From a virus: a stretch of 64,000 nt of DNA. Numbering within the stretch: the first letter of the stretch is position 1; every line of letters begins with the position of its first letter. The stretch spans positions 1-64,000 of the IMG/VR virus record IMGVR_UViG_3300045988_063132; one strand, written 5' to 3'. The position numbers were made by a program, and so were the translations under genes. The notes under the pieces are model-generated. The model saw only the letters and a program-made list of their open reading frames with translations, had not been told where the DNA came from and ran no database searches. Of the stretch, positions 16,743-58,003 are shown in pieces.

Positions 16743-17867
16743 TTATGCCTCAACATCCATGATGAGCTCCCCACATGCACGGGGATCGAACAAGCAAATG
16801 CCCATCTCACCTAATAAATGCACGCTATAGCCATCCTTTGCGTTTGATCTAACTGTGCTTGCATTCTTACCATAACCTGCACCAGGAGCAACAGAACCTG
16901 AAGTATTCCAGATTACCATTTCACGATCTTTTCTAACTACCTTAACGATGTTAGATTTACCGTCTCTACGACCCAGATCCAAAAATGTCATTCTATAAGA
17001 TTCCAGCGGTTTACCAGAAACTGGATGCAACAAACGATTGTAAGTTGTATCATCATATAGCGGGAAGTGTTTCAATGTCAATTCGATACCATTAGTCATT
17101 TTGTAAGTAACAAACTGACCACCTAATACTAAAGACTGACCTGAACCAGTTACAAATTTAGTATCAATTAAATTCATAGTAACCGCTTTCTGTTTCAAAA
17201 CTCTATCGAATTCTCTCATACCCATTTCACCAGTCAGAGCAACAAACTTACGTTCATTAGTACCTAAAATATTATAAGACAGGTCAAACAAGAAATCTTC
17301 CAACAGTTCAGCTGTCAATTCAGTATAATAACGTCTATTAGACGGAGCAATCTGCTGCAACAAACCTGCAGGAATATATACCGGACGACCATTAGTACCC
17401 AGTAAAGAAGTAGAGCCATCTTTGTTTACGTTACTCTTGGAGTAAACTAACATACGTTCACATCTCTTAGACCATTCTCTCATAGCTTTCCATTCCTGAT
17501 AATCAGACCACAAGTAAGAAGTCTTACCTGTTTTAGGATCTTTTAAAGCGATCCACAGTACTGTAGAATAAGCTGTACCTGTAATATCATAATCCAGACG
17601 AGTAGTAAACAAGAAGTTTCTCATCTTGAAATGAGTATTATAGTTCAGGATATCGCCTTCTTCGCTGTATTCTTCATAAGCAGAAGCCAAACGAGATACC
17701 TGATGACCAGATACTAAATATTCACCAGGAATATAAGAACTAGATTGTCCATCAGCAATGAAACAAGTGTAAACCCATTCGTTACCATCCTGATAAGGTG
17801 CACCAGATACACGTACCTGATAGTTTCTGTCATCGAATTCCAAGATAGCACCAGGCTTTTTATTCAC
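16743..17867 (-). CDS. putative major capsid protein
   Basis: 374-aa ORF downstream of the portal and the scaffold-like gene. Assigned by size and position only. Confidence 0.4.
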   Translation of the reverse strand: MNKKPGAILEFDDRNYQVRVSGAPYQDGNEWVYTCFIADGQSSSYIPGEYLVSGHQVSRLASAYEEYSEEGDILNYNTHFKMRNFLFTTRLDYDITGTAYSTVLWIALKDPKTGKTSYLWSDYQEWKAMREWSKRCERMLVYSKSNVNKDGSTSLLGTNGRPVYIPAGLLQQIAPSNRRYYTELTAELLEDFLFDLSYNILGTNERKFVALTGEMGMREFDRVLKQKAVTMNLIDTKFVTGSGQSLVLGGQFVTYKMTNGIELTLKHFPLYDDTTYNRLLHPVSGKPLESYRMTFLDLGRRDGKSNIVKVVRKDREMVIWNTSGSVAPGAGYGKNASTVRSNAKDGYSVHLLGEMGICLFDPRACGELIMDVEA

Positions 17868-18600
17868 ACGGAGTCGTTAATTCCGCATCGCTAGTTTTAC
17901 TAGCAGCTACATCTTTCGATGTAGAATTGACTATATCACAATCCTTATTTAAAAAGGATTTCCAGTACTTCGGGTTACTTAACCCTACACCCTGGTTAGG
18001 GGTTAGTCGATGAACCTTCAAGTCTACTTTATCAACACGCAAACCTTTTAATAAACCAGCTTTTATATAAGCTCCTGTGTTTGCGTATTTTTGAATTAAT
18101 CCGTAAGTATATCCACTTATTCTAAATTGCTTACGTAGTTTACGAAAACCAAAAATAATAAATTGTTCATTATTATAAATGTTTGTAAAAACGTATGCTA
18201 TTTGTGGACCTTCTTTTGTTCTTATGGGTGGAGTATTACAAGTCACTTTAAACAAATTGTGTGTTTTTGCATGTTCTATGTTTTCTTCTGCAGTAACCCA
18301 TTCCAAGTTATTAAGATAGTTGTTTAATTTATCTCCATCTATATGATTAACTTGTTCTTTGTTATTAGGATTATCAATAAAAGTCATTGCAACTAATCTG
18401 TGTACTCTATAATCATATCTTTTATTATCTTTAGTAAAAGTAACATGTAAATAACCTCTTGGATTTTTAGTAGGTTTTAAAAACTTTTTACTTCGATGTG
18501 ACCATATTTTTCCATCTGTAGTACATGCATATAAATTTTCCCACCCAGGGATATCTTTCATTTCGTAGCCTTGCTCGGCTGCTGATTGTCCATTGTTCAT
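17860..18600 (-). CDS. HNH homing endonuclease
   Basis: NHIDGDKLNNYLNNLEWVTAEENIEHA (HNH_3-type motif). It overlaps the downstream capsid-candidate gene start by 8 nt. Confidence 0.65.
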   Translation of the reverse strand: MNNGQSAAEQGYEMKDIPGWENLYACTTDGKIWSHRSKKFLKPTKNPRGYLHVTFTKDNKRYDYRVHRLVAMTFIDNPNNKEQVNHIDGDKLNNYLNNLEWVTAEENIEHAKTHNLFKVTCNTPPIRTKEGPQIAYVFTNIYNNEQFIIFGFRKLRKQFRISGYTYGLIQKYANTGAYIKAGLLKGLRVDKVDLKVHRLTPNQGVGLSNPKYWKSFLNKDCDIVNSTSKDVAASKTSDAELTTPCE

Positions 18601-18702
18601 ATTTTTATCTTTAACTCTATGGTTTAAAAATCTTTAGGAGTTTCCAGCAATTCTCTGGATTATTCGATATACGTTACCGTATAAAGCGGCCTCTTAGCGG
18701 TG

Positions 18703-19089
18703 CTATGCTAAATAACCGAACCATTTATCTTCTAATGACAACATAATGGGAGTGTTACCCAAACCTGCCATAACTGTATCTGCATTAGCGGCAGTAATTT
18801 CTTGTCCATTCCACTTTGCAGAACGAATAGTTACAGCTCTATCGGTATCGATCATTACGTTCCATTCGTAATCTCTCTGATCAATTGACATTACATTACC
18901 AAGACCACCAGTAATAGCATCCAAAGACGTGCTATAACCATCATCTTTAGAACCAAATACATAAGAAATAACACGTGTTACTTCATACGGTCTAGTTAAC
19001 ATTGCATTTGAAATCATGTTTTCATCTACAAGATCTGAAAACCATTTACCTCTACCGATCTGTAAATTATTTAAAATTCCGTTATCCAT
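18703..19089 (-). CDS. hypothetical head protein
   Basis: 128-aa ORF between the scaffold-like gene and the HNH gene. Confidence 0.4.
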   Translation of the reverse strand: MDNGILNNLQIGRGKWFSDLVDENMISNAMLTRPYEVTRVISYVFGSKDDGYSTSLDAITGGLGNVMSIDQRDYEWNVMIDTDRAVTIRSAKWNGQEITAANADTVMAGLGNTPIMLSLEDKWFGYLA

Positions 19090-24880: not shown

Positions 24881-27800
24881 TTAGTTAGTAAACATATAAG
24901 TGGTTGTACTAAAACTGTTATTTATCTGTGGCTCATAAGTATTATCGTAATTTTTAAATAAAGGAGCATTAAATAATCTAATCTGTTTCTCCTTTTCAGT
25001 CTTTTGCTTTACTTGATAATTATACAATTGTTCTTTGTATATCATAATCTGTAGTAATGCCATTACTCGGTCTACATTAATTTTTTCATTATATTTGATT
25101 AATTCCTCAAGTAATGGTTCAGACATGATAGTATTCAATCTTAAAGTATCATTACCAAGATCTTCTTCAAGCCATTCTTTTATTCTATCGATACCCCAAG
25201 CTTTAATCTCTTTTGTCATATGACAGCCTTTTCCTCTATTTACTTTAGAGGAATTAGTGATATCTCGTATGATATCTGGTTGATCAGCTAATAAGTAATT
25301 ACAATGCTTATTGTTAAAATAAGTAAAAATACCAGTATTCTGATTTTCTACCATTGCTTTAGCATTATAATACTTAAGTAACTTACGAACATTCTCATAG
25401 AATTCTTCAGCTGTTTTAGGTCTACCAGTATATTCTGCTACTATTATATCTTGATAAGATTCAAAATCTTGAAAACGTTTGTATATAATACAAGAACCAA
25501 GAGAATTAGTACCAGATTGATCTTGATCATACGGGTCAATACCAGCAATATATAAACCAAAAGGTGCATCCTTTACTGGATGTTCCCATATCACCACAGC
25601 CCCTGTAGGATCAGCAGTTTTAGGTAAAGGAAACTCTTTTATATCATTTTTATTTTTTGAGATGTTCCATACTATTTCTCCTTTTACCTCAGTAAGGTAT
25701 CCTACTTGTTTAGCATTAGCTAATTTCTTATTAGTTCTTATTCTAGCTAATTGTTTTTGTAATTCTTTTTTGGGAAATATGTTACCCGATAGTTCAGTAA
25801 ATGCTTCTGCTGGCGTCTCTGAATGTTCGGCACAATATCTATCGACCTGTTGAGAACTTTTAGCACTTTTTAATTCTTCTTCTCTAAGATTTAATATGAA
25901 TTCTCTGGCTTTTTCATGTAATGTGTTGCCATCTTCATCCATATATAATCTTTTACCATTCTCATCACGTATATCTAGATTAGTATGCTGCGGTACAAAG
26001 AATCCACATGGTTTACCACCTTGCGCTCCTTCATCCCATATATTATCAAATTCTATACAGTTAAATGCTTTAGGATCATAAAATGCATTTCTTAAACCTG
26101 CTACATTATCACCTTCATCACCACCTGTACCAAACATAATCATTAAACCAAATGCTACACCATCCTGTTCTACAGAAGGTCTAGCAATTTGCCATGCAGC
26201 TTCTAATTGATTATTAGATCCAGCTTCTTCCCATAAGATTAATTTACCAGCTTTACCACGGACTGAATCAGGATTATCTTTAATAGATACACCCATTATC
26301 TCAGACTTATAACCTGTTTCTACTTTGTTACCATAATCATCAGTAACAAGCATAGAAGCTCTACGTCTCATGGATGTATTTGATACTTGTCTCTTTTTAC
26401 CCCAAGCTGTATTACCATCAATAAAATCCATGTAATCCCAAGCCTTAGTAAGAATGCCATCTTCTGTTAAATACTGTTTATTAGCAGCATATACATATGA
26501 TTTTGAATTAGGTATTAAAAAGAAGTTTCTACATAGCATAGCACCACCTTTGTAACTATTGTGTGTGGGAATAAAGTCCTTAGTAAGGTATAAACTATTA
26601 TCATGATCTACAATTATACATCTTTGCTTTTCTTTATAGCCTAAAGATTTAATAGATTTTAATCCTATAGCATTGTATTTATAAGTTCTATCATGACGAA
26701 GTTTCTCTAATTTACGAGGTAATTTAAAAATATTTTCTTCTGTGATAATAGTTAATTCCCAATGCGGTAGAGTATTTGAAAAGTTGCCATTACCAAAATC
26801 TACATTACTTCTACCAGGAATTTCATTAGATTTCTTACATCGTATACCTAGACTTCTACAAAGAAAAGCTACATCGTCTACTAATTGTTCAGAAGTAGAC
26901 ACAAATGTGGATGCCCCGTTTGTACAAGAACCATCGGTATCCATTAATCCTTGTAGTAACTCCATCCTATATTCAATAGGAGCTAATTTATATTCTAAAG
27001 GAATAAACTTCTTATCAGCTTTAACTCTTAAACCTAATGTTTTTAATTCCCTTCCTAGTTCGTGAATACCTTTTTGATTCGAAATTATCACATATTGAAA
27101 TTTATCAGTCAATGGTTTAATAGTATAGTTAGGTAATCTCTTAGACAATTCTTCTACAATAAAAATATCATCTGTAGAAAATTTAATTTGACTTCCACAA
27201 ATATAACCATCCCCAAGTAATACACCTAACACATAAGGATCTATTTTACCAGGTGGCTGTTCAAAATCAATAGGTCTTACTGAAGGTAATTTATAAGGAT
27301 AAAATTCTTTTCCTTTACTACCTTGTTTTAATTTTAACTTACTGTATTCCTTAGTAGTTTTTATATGAAGTTTACCTCTAGTAGAATTTATAGTAGACCA
27401 TAAATGATTTTCACCACATCTAACTTTTCTTCCATCCTGTAGTTCTACTTCGTATACTTCCTGTTCACCCTGTTCATTGATTTCGATTACTTTGCAAGCC
27501 CTACCATCCGGATTCATAACAAAATCACCAACTTTTAATGACCCCATTGTAACAAATCCATTTGGAGTTAACACTTCTTCAGATTCTGGTTGTTCAAAAC
27601 CTTTACGTCTAGCTTTTGCTACGCATAAGTGTTTACCTTGATTCTCAGCTTCTTCTATAGATAAGAAATAGTAATAGTCATAATCATAGAAATCAGGAAA
27701 AGCTGTTTCACGAGTCTTCTTTACTACATCGTGTCCTTTTGCGTCTTTTGTAATCTTATAGATAATTCTTTGAATGGGACAGTAATTAAGATAGAAATAA

Positions 27801-27991
27801 TTATAACCTGTAATGTAATCACCATCATCTGCAGTAAACCCATTAATACATCTATCCATTTCGGTTTCCCAAAATGAAAAGTATTCTGAAGTTCCTTTAG
27901 GGTATAAACAGTAAGAGCCGGTCTCCATAAACTGGATGGCCGGCTGTCTAAATTTATTTGAATTTATTATCTTCTTACTGAAATCAACCAT
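24881..27991 (-). CDS. terL: terminase large subunit interrupted by an intein
   Basis: 1036 aa. A P-loop-like segment, CVAKARRKGF, is followed by a ~346-aa Hint plus LAGLIDADG insertion. The polypeptide then resumes with SYKGGAML and the ATPase/nuclease. Confidence 0.7.
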   Translation of the reverse strand: MVDFSKKIINSNKFRQPAIQFMETGSYCLYPKGTSEYFSFWETEMDRCINGFTADDGDYITGYNYFYLNYCPIQRIIYKITKDAKGHDVVKKTRETAFPDFYDYDYYYFLSIEEAENQGKHLCVAKARRKGFEQPESEEVLTPNGFVTMGSLKVGDFVMNPDGRACKVIEINEQGEQEVYEVELQDGRKVRCGENHLWSTINSTRGKLHIKTTKEYSKLKLKQGSKGKEFYPYKLPSVRPIDFEQPPGKIDPYVLGVLLGDGYICGSQIKFSTDDIFIVEELSKRLPNYTIKPLTDKFQYVIISNQKGIHELGRELKTLGLRVKADKKFIPLEYKLAPIEYRMELLQGLMDTDGSCTNGASTFVSTSEQLVDDVAFLCRSLGIRCKKSNEIPGRSNVDFGNGNFSNTLPHWELTIITEENIFKLPRKLEKLRHDRTYKYNAIGLKSIKSLGYKEKQRCIIVDHDNSLYLTKDFIPTHNSYKGGAMLCRNFFLIPNSKSYVYAANKQYLTEDGILTKAWDYMDFIDGNTAWGKKRQVSNTSMRRRASMLVTDDYGNKVETGYKSEIMGVSIKDNPDSVRGKAGKLILWEEAGSNNQLEAAWQIARPSVEQDGVAFGLMIMFGTGGDEGDNVAGLRNAFYDPKAFNCIEFDNIWDEGAQGGKPCGFFVPQHTNLDIRDENGKRLYMDEDGNTLHEKAREFILNLREEELKSAKSSQQVDRYCAEHSETPAEAFTELSGNIFPKKELQKQLARIRTNKKLANAKQVGYLTEVKGEIVWNISKNKNDIKEFPLPKTADPTGAVVIWEHPVKDAPFGLYIAGIDPYDQDQSGTNSLGSCIIYKRFQDFESYQDIIVAEYTGRPKTAEEFYENVRKLLKYYNAKAMVENQNTGIFTYFNNKHCNYLLADQPDIIRDITNSSKVNRGKGCHMTKEIKAWGIDRIKEWLEEDLGNDTLRLNTIMSEPLLEELIKYNEKINVDRVMALLQIMIYKEQLYNYQVKQKTEKEKQIRLFNAPLFKNYDNTYEPQINNSFSTTTYMFTN
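26558..27595 (-). mobile_element. intein with LAGLIDADG homing endonuclease inside terL (aa ~133-478)
   Basis: The Hint N-block VLTPNGFVTMGSLKVGDFVMNPDGRACKVIEI aligns to the VMA intein block VLMADGSIECIENIEVGNKVMGKDGRPREVIKL. The LAGLIDADG motifs are LGVLLGDGYI and LQGLMDTDGS. The C-terminal block is IIVDHDNSLYLTKDFIPTHN followed by a +1 Ser. Confidence 0.7.
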
Positions 27992-37735: not shown

Positions 37736-38081
37736 CAGTTTGCAACTTCATTATTTCTTCAGTGGCTGTACTTGCATGTGAATGTAGGTGCAGTCGTCCT
37801 TACTGTGAGAATCAGTGATAAACTTGTGGGGCTCATGTCTTATCAAAAGGGTGGCCAACTTTTAGATAGCATTAGTGCGGACGTTAAAATCAAGTAGATG
37901 ATAAGAATTGTACTGACAATACAATTCTGCTGTATCTTAAAACAAGTTTTGATAGTCAAATTTTCCTAAACCAATCCTCGTTATTAGGTAAAATTTCTTT
38001 TTGTTTACGTATTGCTACAACAATATCCTCACTGTTCATTCGTTATTTGCATTGTAGTTGTAGATACAATGCCGTCATCAA

Positions 38082-40089: not shown

Positions 40090-40406
40090 TGTGCCGACAA
40101 GTACTGTAAAGCTTATCAATTAATATTAGTGTCTTTACATTTGTAGAGACACTAATACTAGTTAGTGCCGAAAGTTATTAAACCGAATGGATTTAGTAGG
40201 TAATTAAGTTGAATTGACAACTTCCCTCAAGTGCTATATGCCGTAGGGTGGAAAAACAACGTGCCACTGATCATGTGCCGAAGATCATTACTATTGTTTT
40301 AGCTATTGTACTTTATGTCCTGCATAAAAACAATAGGCTCTACTTGTAGAGTTTTATAGTAATGGTTATCAAAACACATATAGAAATTGTGCTTTATGCC
40401 GAAGTT
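40090..40406 (+). promoter_or_regulatory. cluster of five TGCCGA(A/C)(A/G) motifs in an ORF-free region
   Basis: gtgccgacaag at 40090, agtgccgaaag at 40164, atgccgtagg at 40238, tgtgccgaaga at 40274 and tatgccgaagtt at 40395. Confidence 0.35.
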
Positions 40407-56424: not shown

Positions 56425-56742
56425 ATGATAGTATTACCTACAGAAAAAGTAAAAGCAAAAGTAAATAATCCTAGATTTTTGATTATTTACGGTCGACCTA
56501 AAACTGGTAAAACTAGTTGTGTAGCAGCTCTAGAGAATAATTTAATTATTGATCTAGAAGGTGGCTCTGAATTCTTAGATGCATTAGCAGTACAAGCAAG
56601 AACTGTTAATGATTTCGCTGAAATTGCAAATGCAATCAGAGAAAAGATCAAAGAAACAGGCAAAAAGCCCTATAAGTATATTACTATAGATAATGCTACA
56701 CGACTAGAAGAAATATGTCTATCTTACGCAGGTACGCTCTAA
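56425..56742 (+). CDS. Sak4-like AAA_24 ATPase, N-terminal segment (exon 1?)
   Basis: FLIIYGRPKTGKTS (Walker A) and ITIDNATRLEEI. The ORF stops after 105 aa, before any Walker B. Confidence 0.55.
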   Translation: MIVLPTEKVKAKVNNPRFLIIYGRPKTGKTSCVAALENNLIIDLEGGSEFLDALAVQARTVNDFAEIANAIREKIKETGKKPYKYITIDNATRLEEICLSYAGTL

Positions 56743-57535
56743 ATTTATGGAGCGCTATTTAGTAATGAATAGTGTAAAAGCTTTCTAATTTCTGGAACAT
56801 TTTACCTTTAAGTACGTTAAAGATACATTTAAAGTAAAAGGTAAAACAATCAGAAGCGAAGCAATGAAAGAAAAAACATTAAATAAATATATTGGTAAAA
56901 CTCATGGTGTATTAACTGTTATAGATTTAGACCATGAAACTTATGATAAAGAAAAACAAAGAAAACGAACTTATTTTAAATGCAAATGTAATAAATGTGG
57001 TAATATAACTATAGTAAGATCAGATAAATTAACTACTAAATATTGGATACCAAAGTGTTGTAATAATTGTGTCAATCAACAACAACACGAAACGGCAATA
57101 AAATTACATGAAAACGGTATTCCTAGTTATTTTAAAAAAAGAATTAGTTCTATTAAAGGAAATGCAAAAAGTAGAAATATAAATATGCAATTAACTAATA
57201 ATGAAATTTATAACATTATTCAAAAACCATGTTTCTATTGTAAAGAAAAAGAAGCATATGGAATAGATAGAATTGATTCTACAAAAGATTATACTATAGA
57301 TAATTGTGTACCTTGTTGTTTTATTTGCAATCGTATAAAAAATAAATATTCAATAGGTGTTTTTCTAGATAAAATAAGTAAAATATATAATAATTTTTTC
57401 ATTGAACGTTCAACGACTATCCCGAAAGGGAGTACATTACAAGCTAATGGTAATGGAAACGGAAGCATTCCTACTATTAATTAATAGGGAATATGATATA
57501 GTCTAATCTATATGGTGACATATAGCAGTTCATAA
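56743..57535 (+). mobile_element. intervening sequence with an HNH homing endonuclease (putative group I intron)
   Basis: Separates the two halves of one ATPase fold. Contains the HNH ORF 56864..57484. Confidence 0.5.
56864..57484 (+). CDS. HNH homing endonuclease
   Basis: Contains CKCNKCGN, YCKEKEAYGIDRIDSTKDYTIDNCVPCCFICNRIKNKYS. Confidence 0.65.
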   Translation: MKEKTLNKYIGKTHGVLTVIDLDHETYDKEKQRKRTYFKCKCNKCGNITIVRSDKLTTKYWIPKCCNNCVNQQQHETAIKLHENGIPSYFKKRISSIKGNAKSRNINMQLTNNEIYNIIQKPCFYCKEKEAYGIDRIDSTKDYTIDNCVPCCFICNRIKNKYSIGVFLDKISKIYNNFFIERSTTIPKGSTLQANGNGNGSIPTIN

Positions 57536-58003
57536 GAGAACGTATACAAATTTGCGAATTGTATAGAATATAATGATAAAGCTCAACCTCAAGGAAAATC
57601 TTGGCAAGGTACTGATGTTAGATTGCTTCCACAAGGAGCAGGATATCAATATATTAGACTTGCTGTAAGAAAAGTTATCGATATGTTTAAAGAACTTACT
57701 GATAACTTAATTCTTATTGGTCATACTAAGGATAAAATGATTAATAAGAATGGTGAGGATATGACAGAAATGTCCTTAGATCTTGTAGGTAAACTAGGAG
57801 ATATTATATGTGGAGAAGCTGATGCAGTAGGTTTTATGTATCGAAAAGGTAATGAAACAATTATTAATTTCGATAGTAAAGATGAAACTACAAAAGGAGC
57901 AAGAGCACCACATTTGCGTGAGCAAAAAATAGTAATTGCAGAAAGCAATGAAAACAATGAATTAGTATTTCATTGGGACAGAATTTATTTACCAGAAGTT
58001 TAA
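57536..58003 (+). CDS. Sak4-like AAA_24 ATPase, C-terminal segment (exon 2?)
   Basis: The frame is open from 57536, giving ENVYKFANCIEYNDKAQPQGKSW... before the track TTG start at 57623. Contains LILIGHTKDK (Walker B-like) and ICGEADAVGFMYRK, which are typical of AAA_24. Confidence 0.55.
   Translation, partial: ENVYKFANCIEYNDKAQPQGKSWQGTDVRLLPQGAGYQYIRLAVRKVIDMFKELTDNLILIGHTKDKMINKNGEDMTEMSLDLVGKLGDIICGEADAVGFMYRKGNETIINFDSKDETTKGARAPHLREQKIVIAESNENNELVFHWDRIYLPEV

Follow-up and report, generated by a model that had tools for sequence, protein, structure and literature searches.

A probable class 3 intein with a two-motif LAGLIDADG endonuclease in the Walker A motif of a Delta-group crAss-like phage terminase

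Class 3 inteins are defined by a first residue other than Cys, Ser or Thr, by a Trp at B:12 that stands two positions beyond the block B His, by a Cys at F:4 and a Thr at G:5, and by Ser or Thr, seldom Cys, at +1 (PMC2807308), and the DnaB intein of mycobacteriophage Bethlehem (MP-Be DnaB) is their prototype (Tori et al. 2010, PMC2807308). The intein described here lies in the large terminase subunit (TerL) encoded in a 64,000-nucleotide stretch of the virus record IMGVR_UViG_3300045988_063132; this whole stretch is called the window below. It shares with MP-Be DnaB a non-nucleophilic residue 1, His at B:10, Trp at B:12, Cys at F:4, a Thr-His-Asn block G and a hydroxyl residue at +1. Residues K319, C320, I321, D324 and F330 of MP-Be correspond to R325, C326, I327, D330 and Y336 of the window intein, and both inteins are of phage origin, carry a LAGLIDADG endonuclease and reside in a P-loop NTPase. 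On the other hand, the host protein of MP-Be is the DnaB helicase and not TerL, its first residue is not Glu, its +1 residue is Thr instead of Ser, and it was biochemically tested, whereas the window intein is known from sequence and a structure model.

The M. smegmatis DnaBi1 (6bs8) and M. chimaera DnaB1 (6rix/6riy) inteins align with the window intein at W, C, T, H and N (E 7e-8 to 1e-6) and are likewise P-loop insertions after GK, but they are bacterial mini-inteins without an endonuclease. The best whole-molecule structural matches, PI-SceI of yeast VMA1, the archaeal VMA inteins and PI-PfuI, resemble it in combining a Hint domain with a two-motif LAGLIDADG endonuclease; however, these are class 1 inteins that start with Cys1, share 12-17% identity with it and belong to eukaryotic or archaeal hosts and to another host protein.

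In actinobacteriophages TerL is the main intein host, with inteins concentrated in its ATPase domain, also at the classic position where the Walker A Lys meets Ser/Thr (Kelley et al. 2016, PMC5050341; Gosselin et al. 2025, 10.1101/2025.01.02.630785). Those phages infect Actinobacteria and not gut Bacteroidota, are other phages and carry another TerL family, in which the class 3 TerL1 inteins occupy sites c, d and e, whereas the window intein occupies the P-loop site itself. In TerLs of the window type, unlike those of actinobacteriophages, the Walker A Lys position is taken by Phe or Tyr.

For the Delta group (Suoliviridae) of crAss-like phages it was reported that 'TerL typically contains an intein' of the Hint and homing-endonuclease type (Yutin et al. 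2021, PMC7886860; review PMC10136315), and the window intein, which lies in that gene of a phage of that group, is an instance of it. The splicing class, junction residues and insertion site of this intein were not found in PMC7886860 or PMC10136315, and our literature search found no paper linking class 3 inteins to crAss phages. A homologous TerL intein was found in the cultured Bacteroides phage DAC15 (NC_055832, gp106; 31.5% identity over 365 aligned positions, E 5e-47). It reads TRGAGK/AHPYSE...GHLW...AKCITVD...VTHN/SF (slashes mark junctions throughout), so that all class 3 features are there at the same TerL site in another member of Crassvirales; DAC15 differs in belonging to Steigviridae and not Suoliviridae, in having Ala as residue 1 and in keeping the canonical Walker A Lys. 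Two kinds of finding had been published before: inteins in the TerL of Delta crAss phages, and class 3 inteins located in the P-loop of phage terminases. A phage terminase is the archetypal context for a class 3 intein, the window case is clear but ordinary, and it leaves the knowledge of intein mechanisms unchanged.

Host gene and limits of the insert

The window phage is a gut crAss-like phage of the Suoliviridae (Delta group) with about 97% DNA identity to the genome cr55_1. The features that concern the host gene and the insertion site are as follows.

24881..27991, minus strand: TerL precursor gene (N-extein, intein and C-extein), an open reading frame of 1036 aa
22294..24879: portal gene, directly downstream of TerL
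26558..27595, minus strand: intein of 346 aa, Glu1 to Asn346 (TerL residues 133-478), placed by the precise indel against cr55_1, cr1_1 and cr50_1 and by the AF2 model
27596..27622, minus strand: N-terminal half of a deviant Walker A motif, VAKARRKGF (TerL 124-132), with Phe132 as residue -1, placed by homologue alignment
26549..26557, minus strand: C-terminal half of the Walker A motif, SYK, with Ser479 as residue +1 (26555..26557), placed by homologue alignment

The same window probably also holds one group I intron, in an ATPase gene.

The identity of the host protein as TerL, which had been proposed from the letters alone, was borne out: the spliced form matched PHROG 6681 (terminase large subunit) at 3e-157 and shares 99.7% identity with TerL as annotated in cr55_1, and the gene adjoins the portal gene. 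In RefSeq the orthologous gene is annotated as TerL in cr55_1, cr1_1 and cr50_1 alike. In the Pfam scan of the precursor all terminase models stayed under their cut-offs, and terminase domains were also absent from the Pfam results of eight relatives with canonical P-loops. Intein-bearing TerLs escape the Pfam terminase models; one of them, gp106 of DAC15, is mis-annotated in RefSeq as 'DarB-like antirestriction'.

The precursor reads ...CVAKARRKGF/EQPESEE...FIPTHN/SYKGGAML. When it was aligned with the intein-free TerL of cr55_1 (690 aa) and of cr50_1, the insert was found at window 27595..26558 on the minus strand. It comprises 1038 nt, is in frame, and has flanks identical at the junction in comparison with cr55_1, cr1_1 and cr50_1, from all of which the segment is absent; the TerL proteins of cr55_1 and cr1_1 are nonetheless at least 99% identical to that of the window. 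Between the window exteins and cr55_1, 68 of 2073 nt differ (66 of them synonymous), with two amino acid differences. When the window was compared with the cr55_1 genome by local blastn, the alignment broke at window 26558/27596 and cr55_1 position 18001. These limits equal the original prediction to the nucleotide. The three intein-free alleles read KGF/SYK or KGY/SYK with no extra residues, which fixes residue 1 as Glu and residue -1 as Phe. The lack of a Cys or Ser at the N-terminal junction, first noticed as an oddity, is therefore real, since the junction lies exactly where it was first drawn, and the suspicion that it had been misplaced by a few residues was wrong.

A PDB sequence search with the spliced window TerL gave no meaningful match, and the P-loop was therefore placed via homologues with a canonical Walker A motif. 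The spliced protein aligned over its full length with the spliced TerL homologue P0237 (E 4e-123), in which the site reads GSRGKGK/SYK, and at the aligned site the spliced homologue P0215 reads GGRGFGK/TY. F132/S479 thus matches K/S of the canonical GSRGKGK/S, that is, the position between GK and S/T of Walker A, as expected for the proposed insertion in the P-loop. Of the 163 related inteins, 79 are preceded by GxxGxGK and 24 by R..G[FYAM]. The deviant motif of lambda gpA type, KSARVGYS, presumably resembles the deviant Walker A of the window TerL.

Splicing blocks, endonuclease and structure model

The splicing blocks and the endonuclease core were assigned as follows.

27557..27595, minus strand: block A, EQPESEEVLTPNG, with the non-nucleophile Glu as residue 1 (27593..27595)
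27392..27433, minus strand: block B, GRKVRCGENHLWST, with His64 (B:10, 27404..27406) and Trp66 (B:12, 27398..27400)
26585..26629, minus strand: block F, KQRCIIVDHDNSLYL, with Cys326 (F:4, 26618..26620), the predicted branch-point nucleophile
26558..26578, minus strand: block G, DFIPTHN, with Thr344 (G:5), His345 and Asn346 (26558..26560)
26927..27241, minus strand: core of the LAGLIDADG homing endonuclease, spanning motifs 1 (intein 119-132, with Asp129) and 2 (intein 210-223, with Asp221), assigned by Pfam and the model

In block B, His64-Leu65-Trp66 (HLW) aligns on HQW of the class 3 inteins 6bs8 and 6rix, and QRCIIVD...PTHN of blocks F and G aligns on VRCVEVD...PTHN of the same two. The intein ends in Thr-His-Asn followed by Ser479 at +1, so that the PTHN block with its +1 Ser, as originally described, can be read directly at His345-Asn346/Ser479. 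Residue tallies were made over 163 full-length related domains in 150 cluster representatives. His64 and Cys326 are kept in all 163 domains, Trp66 and Thr344 each in 159, His345 in 155 and Asn346 in 162; the +1 residue is Ser or Thr in 155 (Thr 80, Ser 75) and Cys in 8. Glu is the second commonest first residue (29/163), and E-Q-P at the start of the intein is invariant in 120 close homologues. The complete WCT triplet was found in 156 of the related domains, 147 of which have a non-nucleophilic residue 1. In an alignment of 52 sequences (34-48% identity) the invariant columns include the signature residues as well as positions in the core of the LAGLIDADG endonuclease domain.

A class 1 intein has Cys, Ser or Thr as residue 1, whereas here this residue is Glu. 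At every position the window intein agrees with the sequence definition of class 3, and, since three WCT inteins nonetheless begin with Ser or Cys (PMC2807308), the triplet alone is no proof of mechanism. The suggestion that this might be a class 3 intein was right in that W66, C326 and T344 are all present and conserved.

Motif 1 (DPYVLGVLLGDGYI, intein 119-132) and motif 2 (RMELLQGLMDTDGS, intein 210-223) each end in an acidic residue, as in two-motif homing endonucleases, which have an alpha-beta-beta-alpha-beta-beta-alpha fold, and Pfam LAGLIDADG_3 scored above its gathering cut-off (E 4.6e-7). The first description of the insert as an intein with a LAGLIDADG endonuclease held up. Asp129 is present in 148 of 163 relatives, Asp221 in 157 and K196 in 155, and in Foldseek the predicted endonuclease part of the model matched I-DmoI and the endonuclease domain of PI-SceI.

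It was from the Hint side that profile support failed to come. In the profile searches LAGLIDADG_3 alone passed its cut-off: on the precursor and on the insert all Hint and intein_Nterm models of Pfam and NCBIfam were under their cut-offs, and these profiles alone would have under-called the intein. In the PDB sequence search, by contrast, the top matches were class 3 DnaB inteins, 6bs8 at 6.9e-8 and then 6rix and 6riy (to 1e-6), and 18,883 cluster representatives matched the insert at E<=1e-3. Given these matches and the LAGLIDADG_3 score, chance similarity is not the explanation. An earlier AF2 model built from 7 close homologues had an unreliable Hint domain (pLDDT 57), whereas the model from an alignment of 52 diverse representatives reached pLDDT 92.5 and pTM 0.91. 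Its shape is a Hint fold wrapped around the endonuclease; with this model Foldseek returned PI-SceI (E 4.8e-18, TM 0.68), and for its Hint part, compared with the class 3 inteins 6riy and 6bs8, TM was 0.80-0.81 (normalised to the target). Together, the PDB sequence matches and the AF2 model point to a predicted Hint fold with blocks A, B, F and G.

We therefore assign a probability of about 0.88 to the reading that the segment is a class 3 intein with a two-motif LAGLIDADG homing endonuclease, placed between the penultimate and last Walker A residues of a Delta-group crAss-like TerL; its splicing chemistry, activity and homing we infer. The exact junctions are now fixed and the splicing class assigned for a TerL intein of wide occurrence among Delta-group crAss-like phages, which rank among the most abundant human gut viruses. 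As TerL is a standard phylogenetic marker of Crassvirales, the 346-aa insert must be taken out before trees or family profiles are made.

Weighing of other readings

It is highly unlikely that the insert is a decayed, non-splicing intein or a domesticated insertion domain, leaving a 1036-aa TerL that is inactive or works with the insert in place. Inteins do decay, a class 3-like pseudogene is described in PMC3196547, and splicing of the window intein is a prediction from its sequence and model. Nevertheless, the insert splits Walker A between Gly-Phe and Ser, its catalytic residues are all intact and conserved, and dN/dS lies far under 1 across the intein. The close relative cr55_1 has a single annotated TerL, the intein-bearing allele is abundant in metagenomes, and DAC15, a cultured and viable phage, has a homologous intein at the same site.

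Still less probable is a class 2 (KlbA-like) intein, in which the +1 residue itself attacks the N-terminal junction and no block F intermediate is formed. A non-nucleophilic residue 1 is common to classes 2 and 3; however, class 2 inteins are without the WCT triplet, and in the Mja KlbA intein, which was studied by experiment, the +1 residue is Cys and F:4 is Asp (PMC2807308). In the window intein the triplet is complete, the +1 residue is Ser, Cys is found at F:4 in 163/163 relatives, and its closest homologues among solved structures belong to class 3.

It is scarcely credible that the insert is a class 1 intein with its N-terminal junction displaced by a few residues, for instance to Ser5 of EQPES or to some other Ser or Cys, and that splicing begins there with a normal N-S or N-O acyl shift. 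Ser137 (intein residue 5) is indeed invariant in close homologues, but across the relatives position 5 is Ser in just 50/163, the others having Asp, Thr, Tyr or Glu. Because the three intein-free alleles read KGF/SYK or KGY/SYK with no added residues, a junction at Ser5 would leave EQPE in the P-loop. The register with the solved class 3 inteins runs from residue 9 to residue 9, and Phe/Tyr at -1 and Glu at 1 provide no nucleophile.

As for a self-splicing group I intron with an in-frame LAGLIDADG ORF, the chance is negligible: such introns are reported in Delta-group core genes (Yutin 2021, PMC7886860) and one is probably present in the ATPase gene of the window itself, but here a single open frame runs from one extein through the entire insert into the other, the insert begins and ends with Hint blocks (A and G) instead of RNA structure, the model shows an endonuclease enclosed by a Hint fold, Rfam intron families gave no match in the region, and the same paper calls the TerL element of the Delta group an intein.

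Proposed splicing pathway, selection and spread

For the class 3 intein, we infer the mechanism by transfer from characterised class 3 inteins. The precursor would fold and the side chain of Cys326 (F:4) would attack the Phe132-Glu133 peptide bond, this scissile bond being activated by His64 and Trp66 of block B. The N-extein would then be held on Cys326 as a branched thioester and would pass to Ser479 (+1) by transesterification. Cyclisation of Asn346, presumably aided by His345 and Thr344, would free the intein, and an O-to-N acyl shift would remake the peptide bond. The expected product, a TerL of 690 aa, would have its KARRKGFS P-loop intact and would be the same as the intein-free allele. 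The homologous intein of the cultured phage DAC15 opens class 3 splicing to experiments in a Bacteroides host.

It is conceivable, albeit very unlikely, that the intein is more than a selfish element and acts as a conditional switch which times or gates terminase activation. Splicing might then be tied to the redox or metal state of Cys326, possibly via Cys60 (B:6), where Cys occurs in 117 of 163 relatives. In class 3 M. smegmatis DnaBi1, oxidation reversibly blocks the intein through a disulfide to the catalytic Cys (PMC6195587). The redox partner in that intein, Cys48, has no counterpart in the window intein, in whose relatives Cys at B:6 is frequent instead. What was seen in favour of a switch is no more than that the cysteines are there and that most Delta-group TerLs have kept the intein. 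If true, such a switch would couple DNA packaging in an anaerobic gut host to host physiology.

The splicing and endonuclease parts are both under purifying selection, with dN/dS of 0.04-0.28 in the splicing domain and of 0.10-0.18 in the endonuclease, values which are rough because dS is saturated (>1). In co-infection the endonuclease would cut empty TerL alleles, into which the intein would be copied. Presence/absence polymorphism of the intein was observed among TerL alleles that are at least 99% identical, and such homing would explain near-identical phages that differ only by the presence of the intein. The empty site of the cr55_1 type is GCTAGACGTAAAGGTTTT/AGTTACAAAGGTGGTGCT. The pattern of divergence around the site is unusual. 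The flank shared with cr55_1 is free of differences over 183 nt (p ~0.013), which is suggestive of co-conversion or of a recent gain or loss of the intein, though not strong enough for a claim. The cr1_1 variant of the site reads TTC/AGT...GCA ATG CTG and the cr50_1 variant TAT/TCC. With such altered target sites, and with near-identical genomes of which some have the intein and others lack it, homing could be followed in nature in human gut viromes. The allele with the intein is common in metagenomes, where its cluster holds 675 member sequences.

The terminase host gene and the boundaries of the insert

By sequence, the product of the large terminase subunit (TerL) gene and the DNA around it place the window among the crAss-like phages, in the family Suoliviridae (the 'Delta' group). 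The closest records were the crAss-like phages cr55_1 (Culoivirus intestinalis) and cr1_1, each from human faeces, with a DNA identity of ~97% over 14 kb. With the insert taken out, TerL gave an E value of 3e-157 against PHROG 6681 ('terminase large subunit'), and this extein differed from the annotated cr55_1 TerL at 2 of 690 residues. The features concerned are:

24881..27991, minus strand: TerL precursor ORF, 1036 aa, directly upstream of the portal gene
27595..26558, minus strand: intein insert, 346 aa, the gap against the intein-free TerL alignment

The alignment to intein-free homologues proposed in the original prediction was carried out with the TerLs of cr55_1 and cr50_1, and one clean insertion, absent from both, was observed at Phe132/Ser479 of the precursor. 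The window protein reads VAKARRKGF-EQPESEE...FIPTHN-SYKGGAML at this site, where cr55_1 has VAKARRKGF|SYKGGAML and cr50_1 has VAKARRKGY|SYKGGSML. In blastn the match between the window and the whole genome of cr55_1 is interrupted at window 26558|27596; the two ends meet at cr55_1 position 18001, and the 45 nt on either side of the junction showed no differences. The N-terminal residue of the insert is thus truly Glu, after Phe at -1; the predicted coordinates 26558-27595 agree exactly with the insert, and the alternative of a junction misplaced by a few residues is ruled out. A search of the insert region against Rfam gave zero family matches, and thus nothing points to an intron there.

Endonuclease domain and splicing class

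The Pfam LAGLIDADG_3 match exceeded its gathering score, generic Hint models gave sub-threshold matches only, and the intein chains found when the PDB was searched by sequence had E values from 7e-8 to 1e-6. HMMER, run exhaustively on 1.8 billion cluster representatives, found 18,883 relatives at E<=1e-3, including 3,445 at E<=1e-30. With seven close homologues as input, a first AlphaFold model had a poor splicing domain; the second, for which 52 diverse relatives of 34-48% identity served as input, reached pLDDT 92.5 and pTM 0.91. Foldseek matched this whole molecule in the PDB to the bifunctional inteins PI-SceI (E 4.8e-18, TM 0.68), TliVMA, PhoVMA and PI-PfuI, its middle domain to I-DmoI-type LAGLIDADG enzymes, in line with the endonuclease originally predicted, and its Hint part to mini-inteins, including the class 3 inteins MchDnaB1 and Msm DnaBi1 (target-normalised TM 0.80-0.81).

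According to Tori et al. (PMC2807308), class 3 inteins start with a residue that is no nucleophile, and their block F Cys begins splicing by attacking the N-terminal junction. These inteins carry the WCT triplet of Trp (block B, position 12), Cys (block F, position 4) and Thr (block G, position 5), and usually have Ser or Thr at +1. Every one of these sequence features was found: Glu1, His64-Leu-Trp66, Cys326, Thr344-His345-Asn346 and Ser+1, so that the WCT triplet suggested as a check is present (Trp66, Cys326, Thr344) and the ...PTHN end is followed by Ser as first read. Moreover, the two top PDB sequence families were class 3 DnaB inteins, in which HQW pairs with our HLW and, in blocks F and G, VRCVEVDNPEHLYLAGPGMVPTHN pairs with QRCIIVDHDNSLYLTKDFIPTHN. 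Residues K319, I321, D324 and F330 near the block F Cys, which mattered in mutagenesis of the MP-Be DnaB intein (PMC2807308), correspond to R325, I327, D330 and Y336 here. We thus put the probability that a class 3 intein with a LAGLIDADG endonuclease sits in the TerL Walker A motif, class 3 being one of the two options originally offered, at about 0.9. Class 2 inteins are by definition without the WCT triplet, and class 1 splicing needs a nucleophile at residue 1, where this intein has Glu.

The same residues were tallied in related domains of full length, 163 in all, taken from the best 150 cluster representatives: His64 and Cys326 in all 163, Asn346 in 162, Trp66 and Thr344 in 159 each, and His345 in 155. 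Residue +1 was Thr (80), Ser (75) or Cys (8). Residue 1 was Ala in 78 and Glu in 29, which makes Glu the second commonest, followed by Pro (17) and then Leu, Met, Ser, Asp, Cys and others; Glu1 was found mostly in TerL-type contexts (R..G[FY]|EQP.SE), and the Glu-Gln-Pro start with the Thr-His-Asn|Ser end was kept in 120/120 closest homologues. A further cysteine, Cys60 (block B position 6; window 27416-27418), precedes the block B His by four residues; it is Cys in 117/163 relatives, and nothing corresponds to it in the Msm DnaBi1 and MchDnaB1 sequences in the PDB sequence-search alignment.

Walker A position, functional state and mobility

The spliced window TerL could be aligned end to end with P0237, a spliced TerL homologue (E 4e-123, 37% identity), whose matching site, GSRGKGK|SYK, is a canonical Walker A motif, as the predicted P-loop insertion implied; another homologue, P0215, has GGRGFGK|TY. 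The upstream context was ...GK| in 79 of the 163 related inteins and R..G[FYAM]| in 24. The intein therefore interrupts the P-loop at its classic point, after the Walker A Lys and before Ser/Thr. In this TerL clade Phe or Tyr takes the place of the Lys and basic residues precede it (KARRKGF|S), a motif that presumably resembles the deviant KSARVGYS of lambda gpA. Before splicing the P-loop is split, and the precursor should not bind ATP. A redox-gated, conditional splicing that would control packaging is very improbable.

In codon alignments against two intein-bearing homologues (P0003 and P0014), dN/dS was 0.04-0.28 in the two splicing segments, 0.10-0.18 in the endonuclease and 0.07-0.10 in the C-extein; these values are rough because dS is saturated, though all lie far below 1. 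The endonuclease retains both catalytic Asp and a conserved Lys (D129 in 148/163, D221 in 157/163 and K196 in 155/163 relatives), and the intein-bearing allele is common, with 675 member sequences in its 90% cluster. DAC15, a cultured, viable Bacteroides phage of the Steigviridae, carries a homologous intein with every class 3 feature at the same TerL site within a canonical Walker A motif (NC_055832 9429-12761; TRGAGK|AHPYSE...GHLW...AKCITVD...VTHN|SF). Selection, kept residues, allele abundance and DAC15 together argue that inteins of this kind would splice in vivo. The RefSeq name of the DAC15 gene, 'DarB-like antirestriction', looks like a mis-annotation.

The site is empty in cr55_1 and cr1_1, whose TerLs are >=99% identical to the window extein, and occupied in the homologues P0001 and P0002 as in the window. 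Against cr55_1, 68 of 2073 extein nucleotides differed, with none from -82 to +101 around the junction, and a junction-spanning gap as long as this one arises in 1.3% of trials with differences placed at random. The opposite pattern was observed against empty cr1_1, where 23 of 50 differences lay <=200 nt from the junction, including -1, +17 and +23 (window 26358-26557 and 27596-27795 were compared with the cr1_1 and cr50_1 loci, L010 and L002). The Ser+1 codon is TCC in the empty cr50_1 allele versus AGT in all intein-bearing alleles examined. Such flank patterns would fit homing with co-conversion and target-site variants; co-conversion tracts, or target variants that resist the endonuclease, may lie behind the differences.

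In Delta-group crAss-like phages TerL 'typically contains an intein', one that combines Hint and endonuclease parts (Yutin et al., 2021), as restated in a Crassvirales review (PMC10136315), and TerL inteins of classes 1 and 3 were described in actinobacteriophages (Kelley et al., 2016, PMC5050341; preprint of 2025, 10.1101/2025.01.02.630785). Among 1701 class 3 inteins, 82.5% had LAGLIDADG motifs (Hoffmann et al., 2020). TerL inteins of the Delta group and class 3 TerL inteins in phages are thus already known and no new mechanism is revealed; our literature search found no paper tying class 3 inteins to crAss phages, and the present analysis adds the exact junctions, the class of splicing, the P-loop mapping and the selection evidence.

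Other inserts and elements

An 834-nt stretch (window 56742-57575) missing from cr55_1 interrupts a P-loop ATPase gene whose cr55_1 counterpart, gp084, is uninterrupted. The stretch is probably a group I intron carrying a homing endonuclease, of the type reported for Delta-group crAss phages; Rfam intron families all scored below gathering in this stretch. The elements outside TerL are:

56425..56742 and 57623..58003, plus strand: flanks of the split ATPase, the N part with GRPKTGKT
56864..57484: Cys-rich HNH-like ORF, 206 aa, inside the 834-nt stretch
37796-37895, plus strand: Hatchet ribozyme, Rfam gathering-level, 76.5 bits, early/middle gene region
40094-40273, plus strand: RAGATH-22 RNA, Rfam gathering-level, 125.6 bits, early/middle gene region

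The Hatchet match starts exactly where a high-identity block to cr55_1 starts (37796). Window 17856-18714, near the major head protein gene, also differs from cr55_1, in which an HNH endonuclease gene (gp009) adjoins that gene; the two phages probably differ here in their occupancy by an intron or homing-endonuclease gene.

Three further intein sites were observed in related TerLs: a second class 3-like intein in P0006 (GHPYSQ...HKW...KCVHV...TKN|C), directly before RGKAGKLILWEE in the Walker B region, a class 1 intein in P0002 (CLDKN...VHN|S) after RYCAEH, and a class 1 intein in cr118_1 (L003:1001-4171; CLLPGE...THN|C) before the DPYDHD nuclease motif. On the contig with P0014, from a related phage, a GIY-YIG-type ORF with a weak Pfam match (L005:834-1535) lies directly upstream of the intein-bearing TerL gene, overlapping its start, and is a candidate for a further homing-endonuclease gene at the TerL locus.
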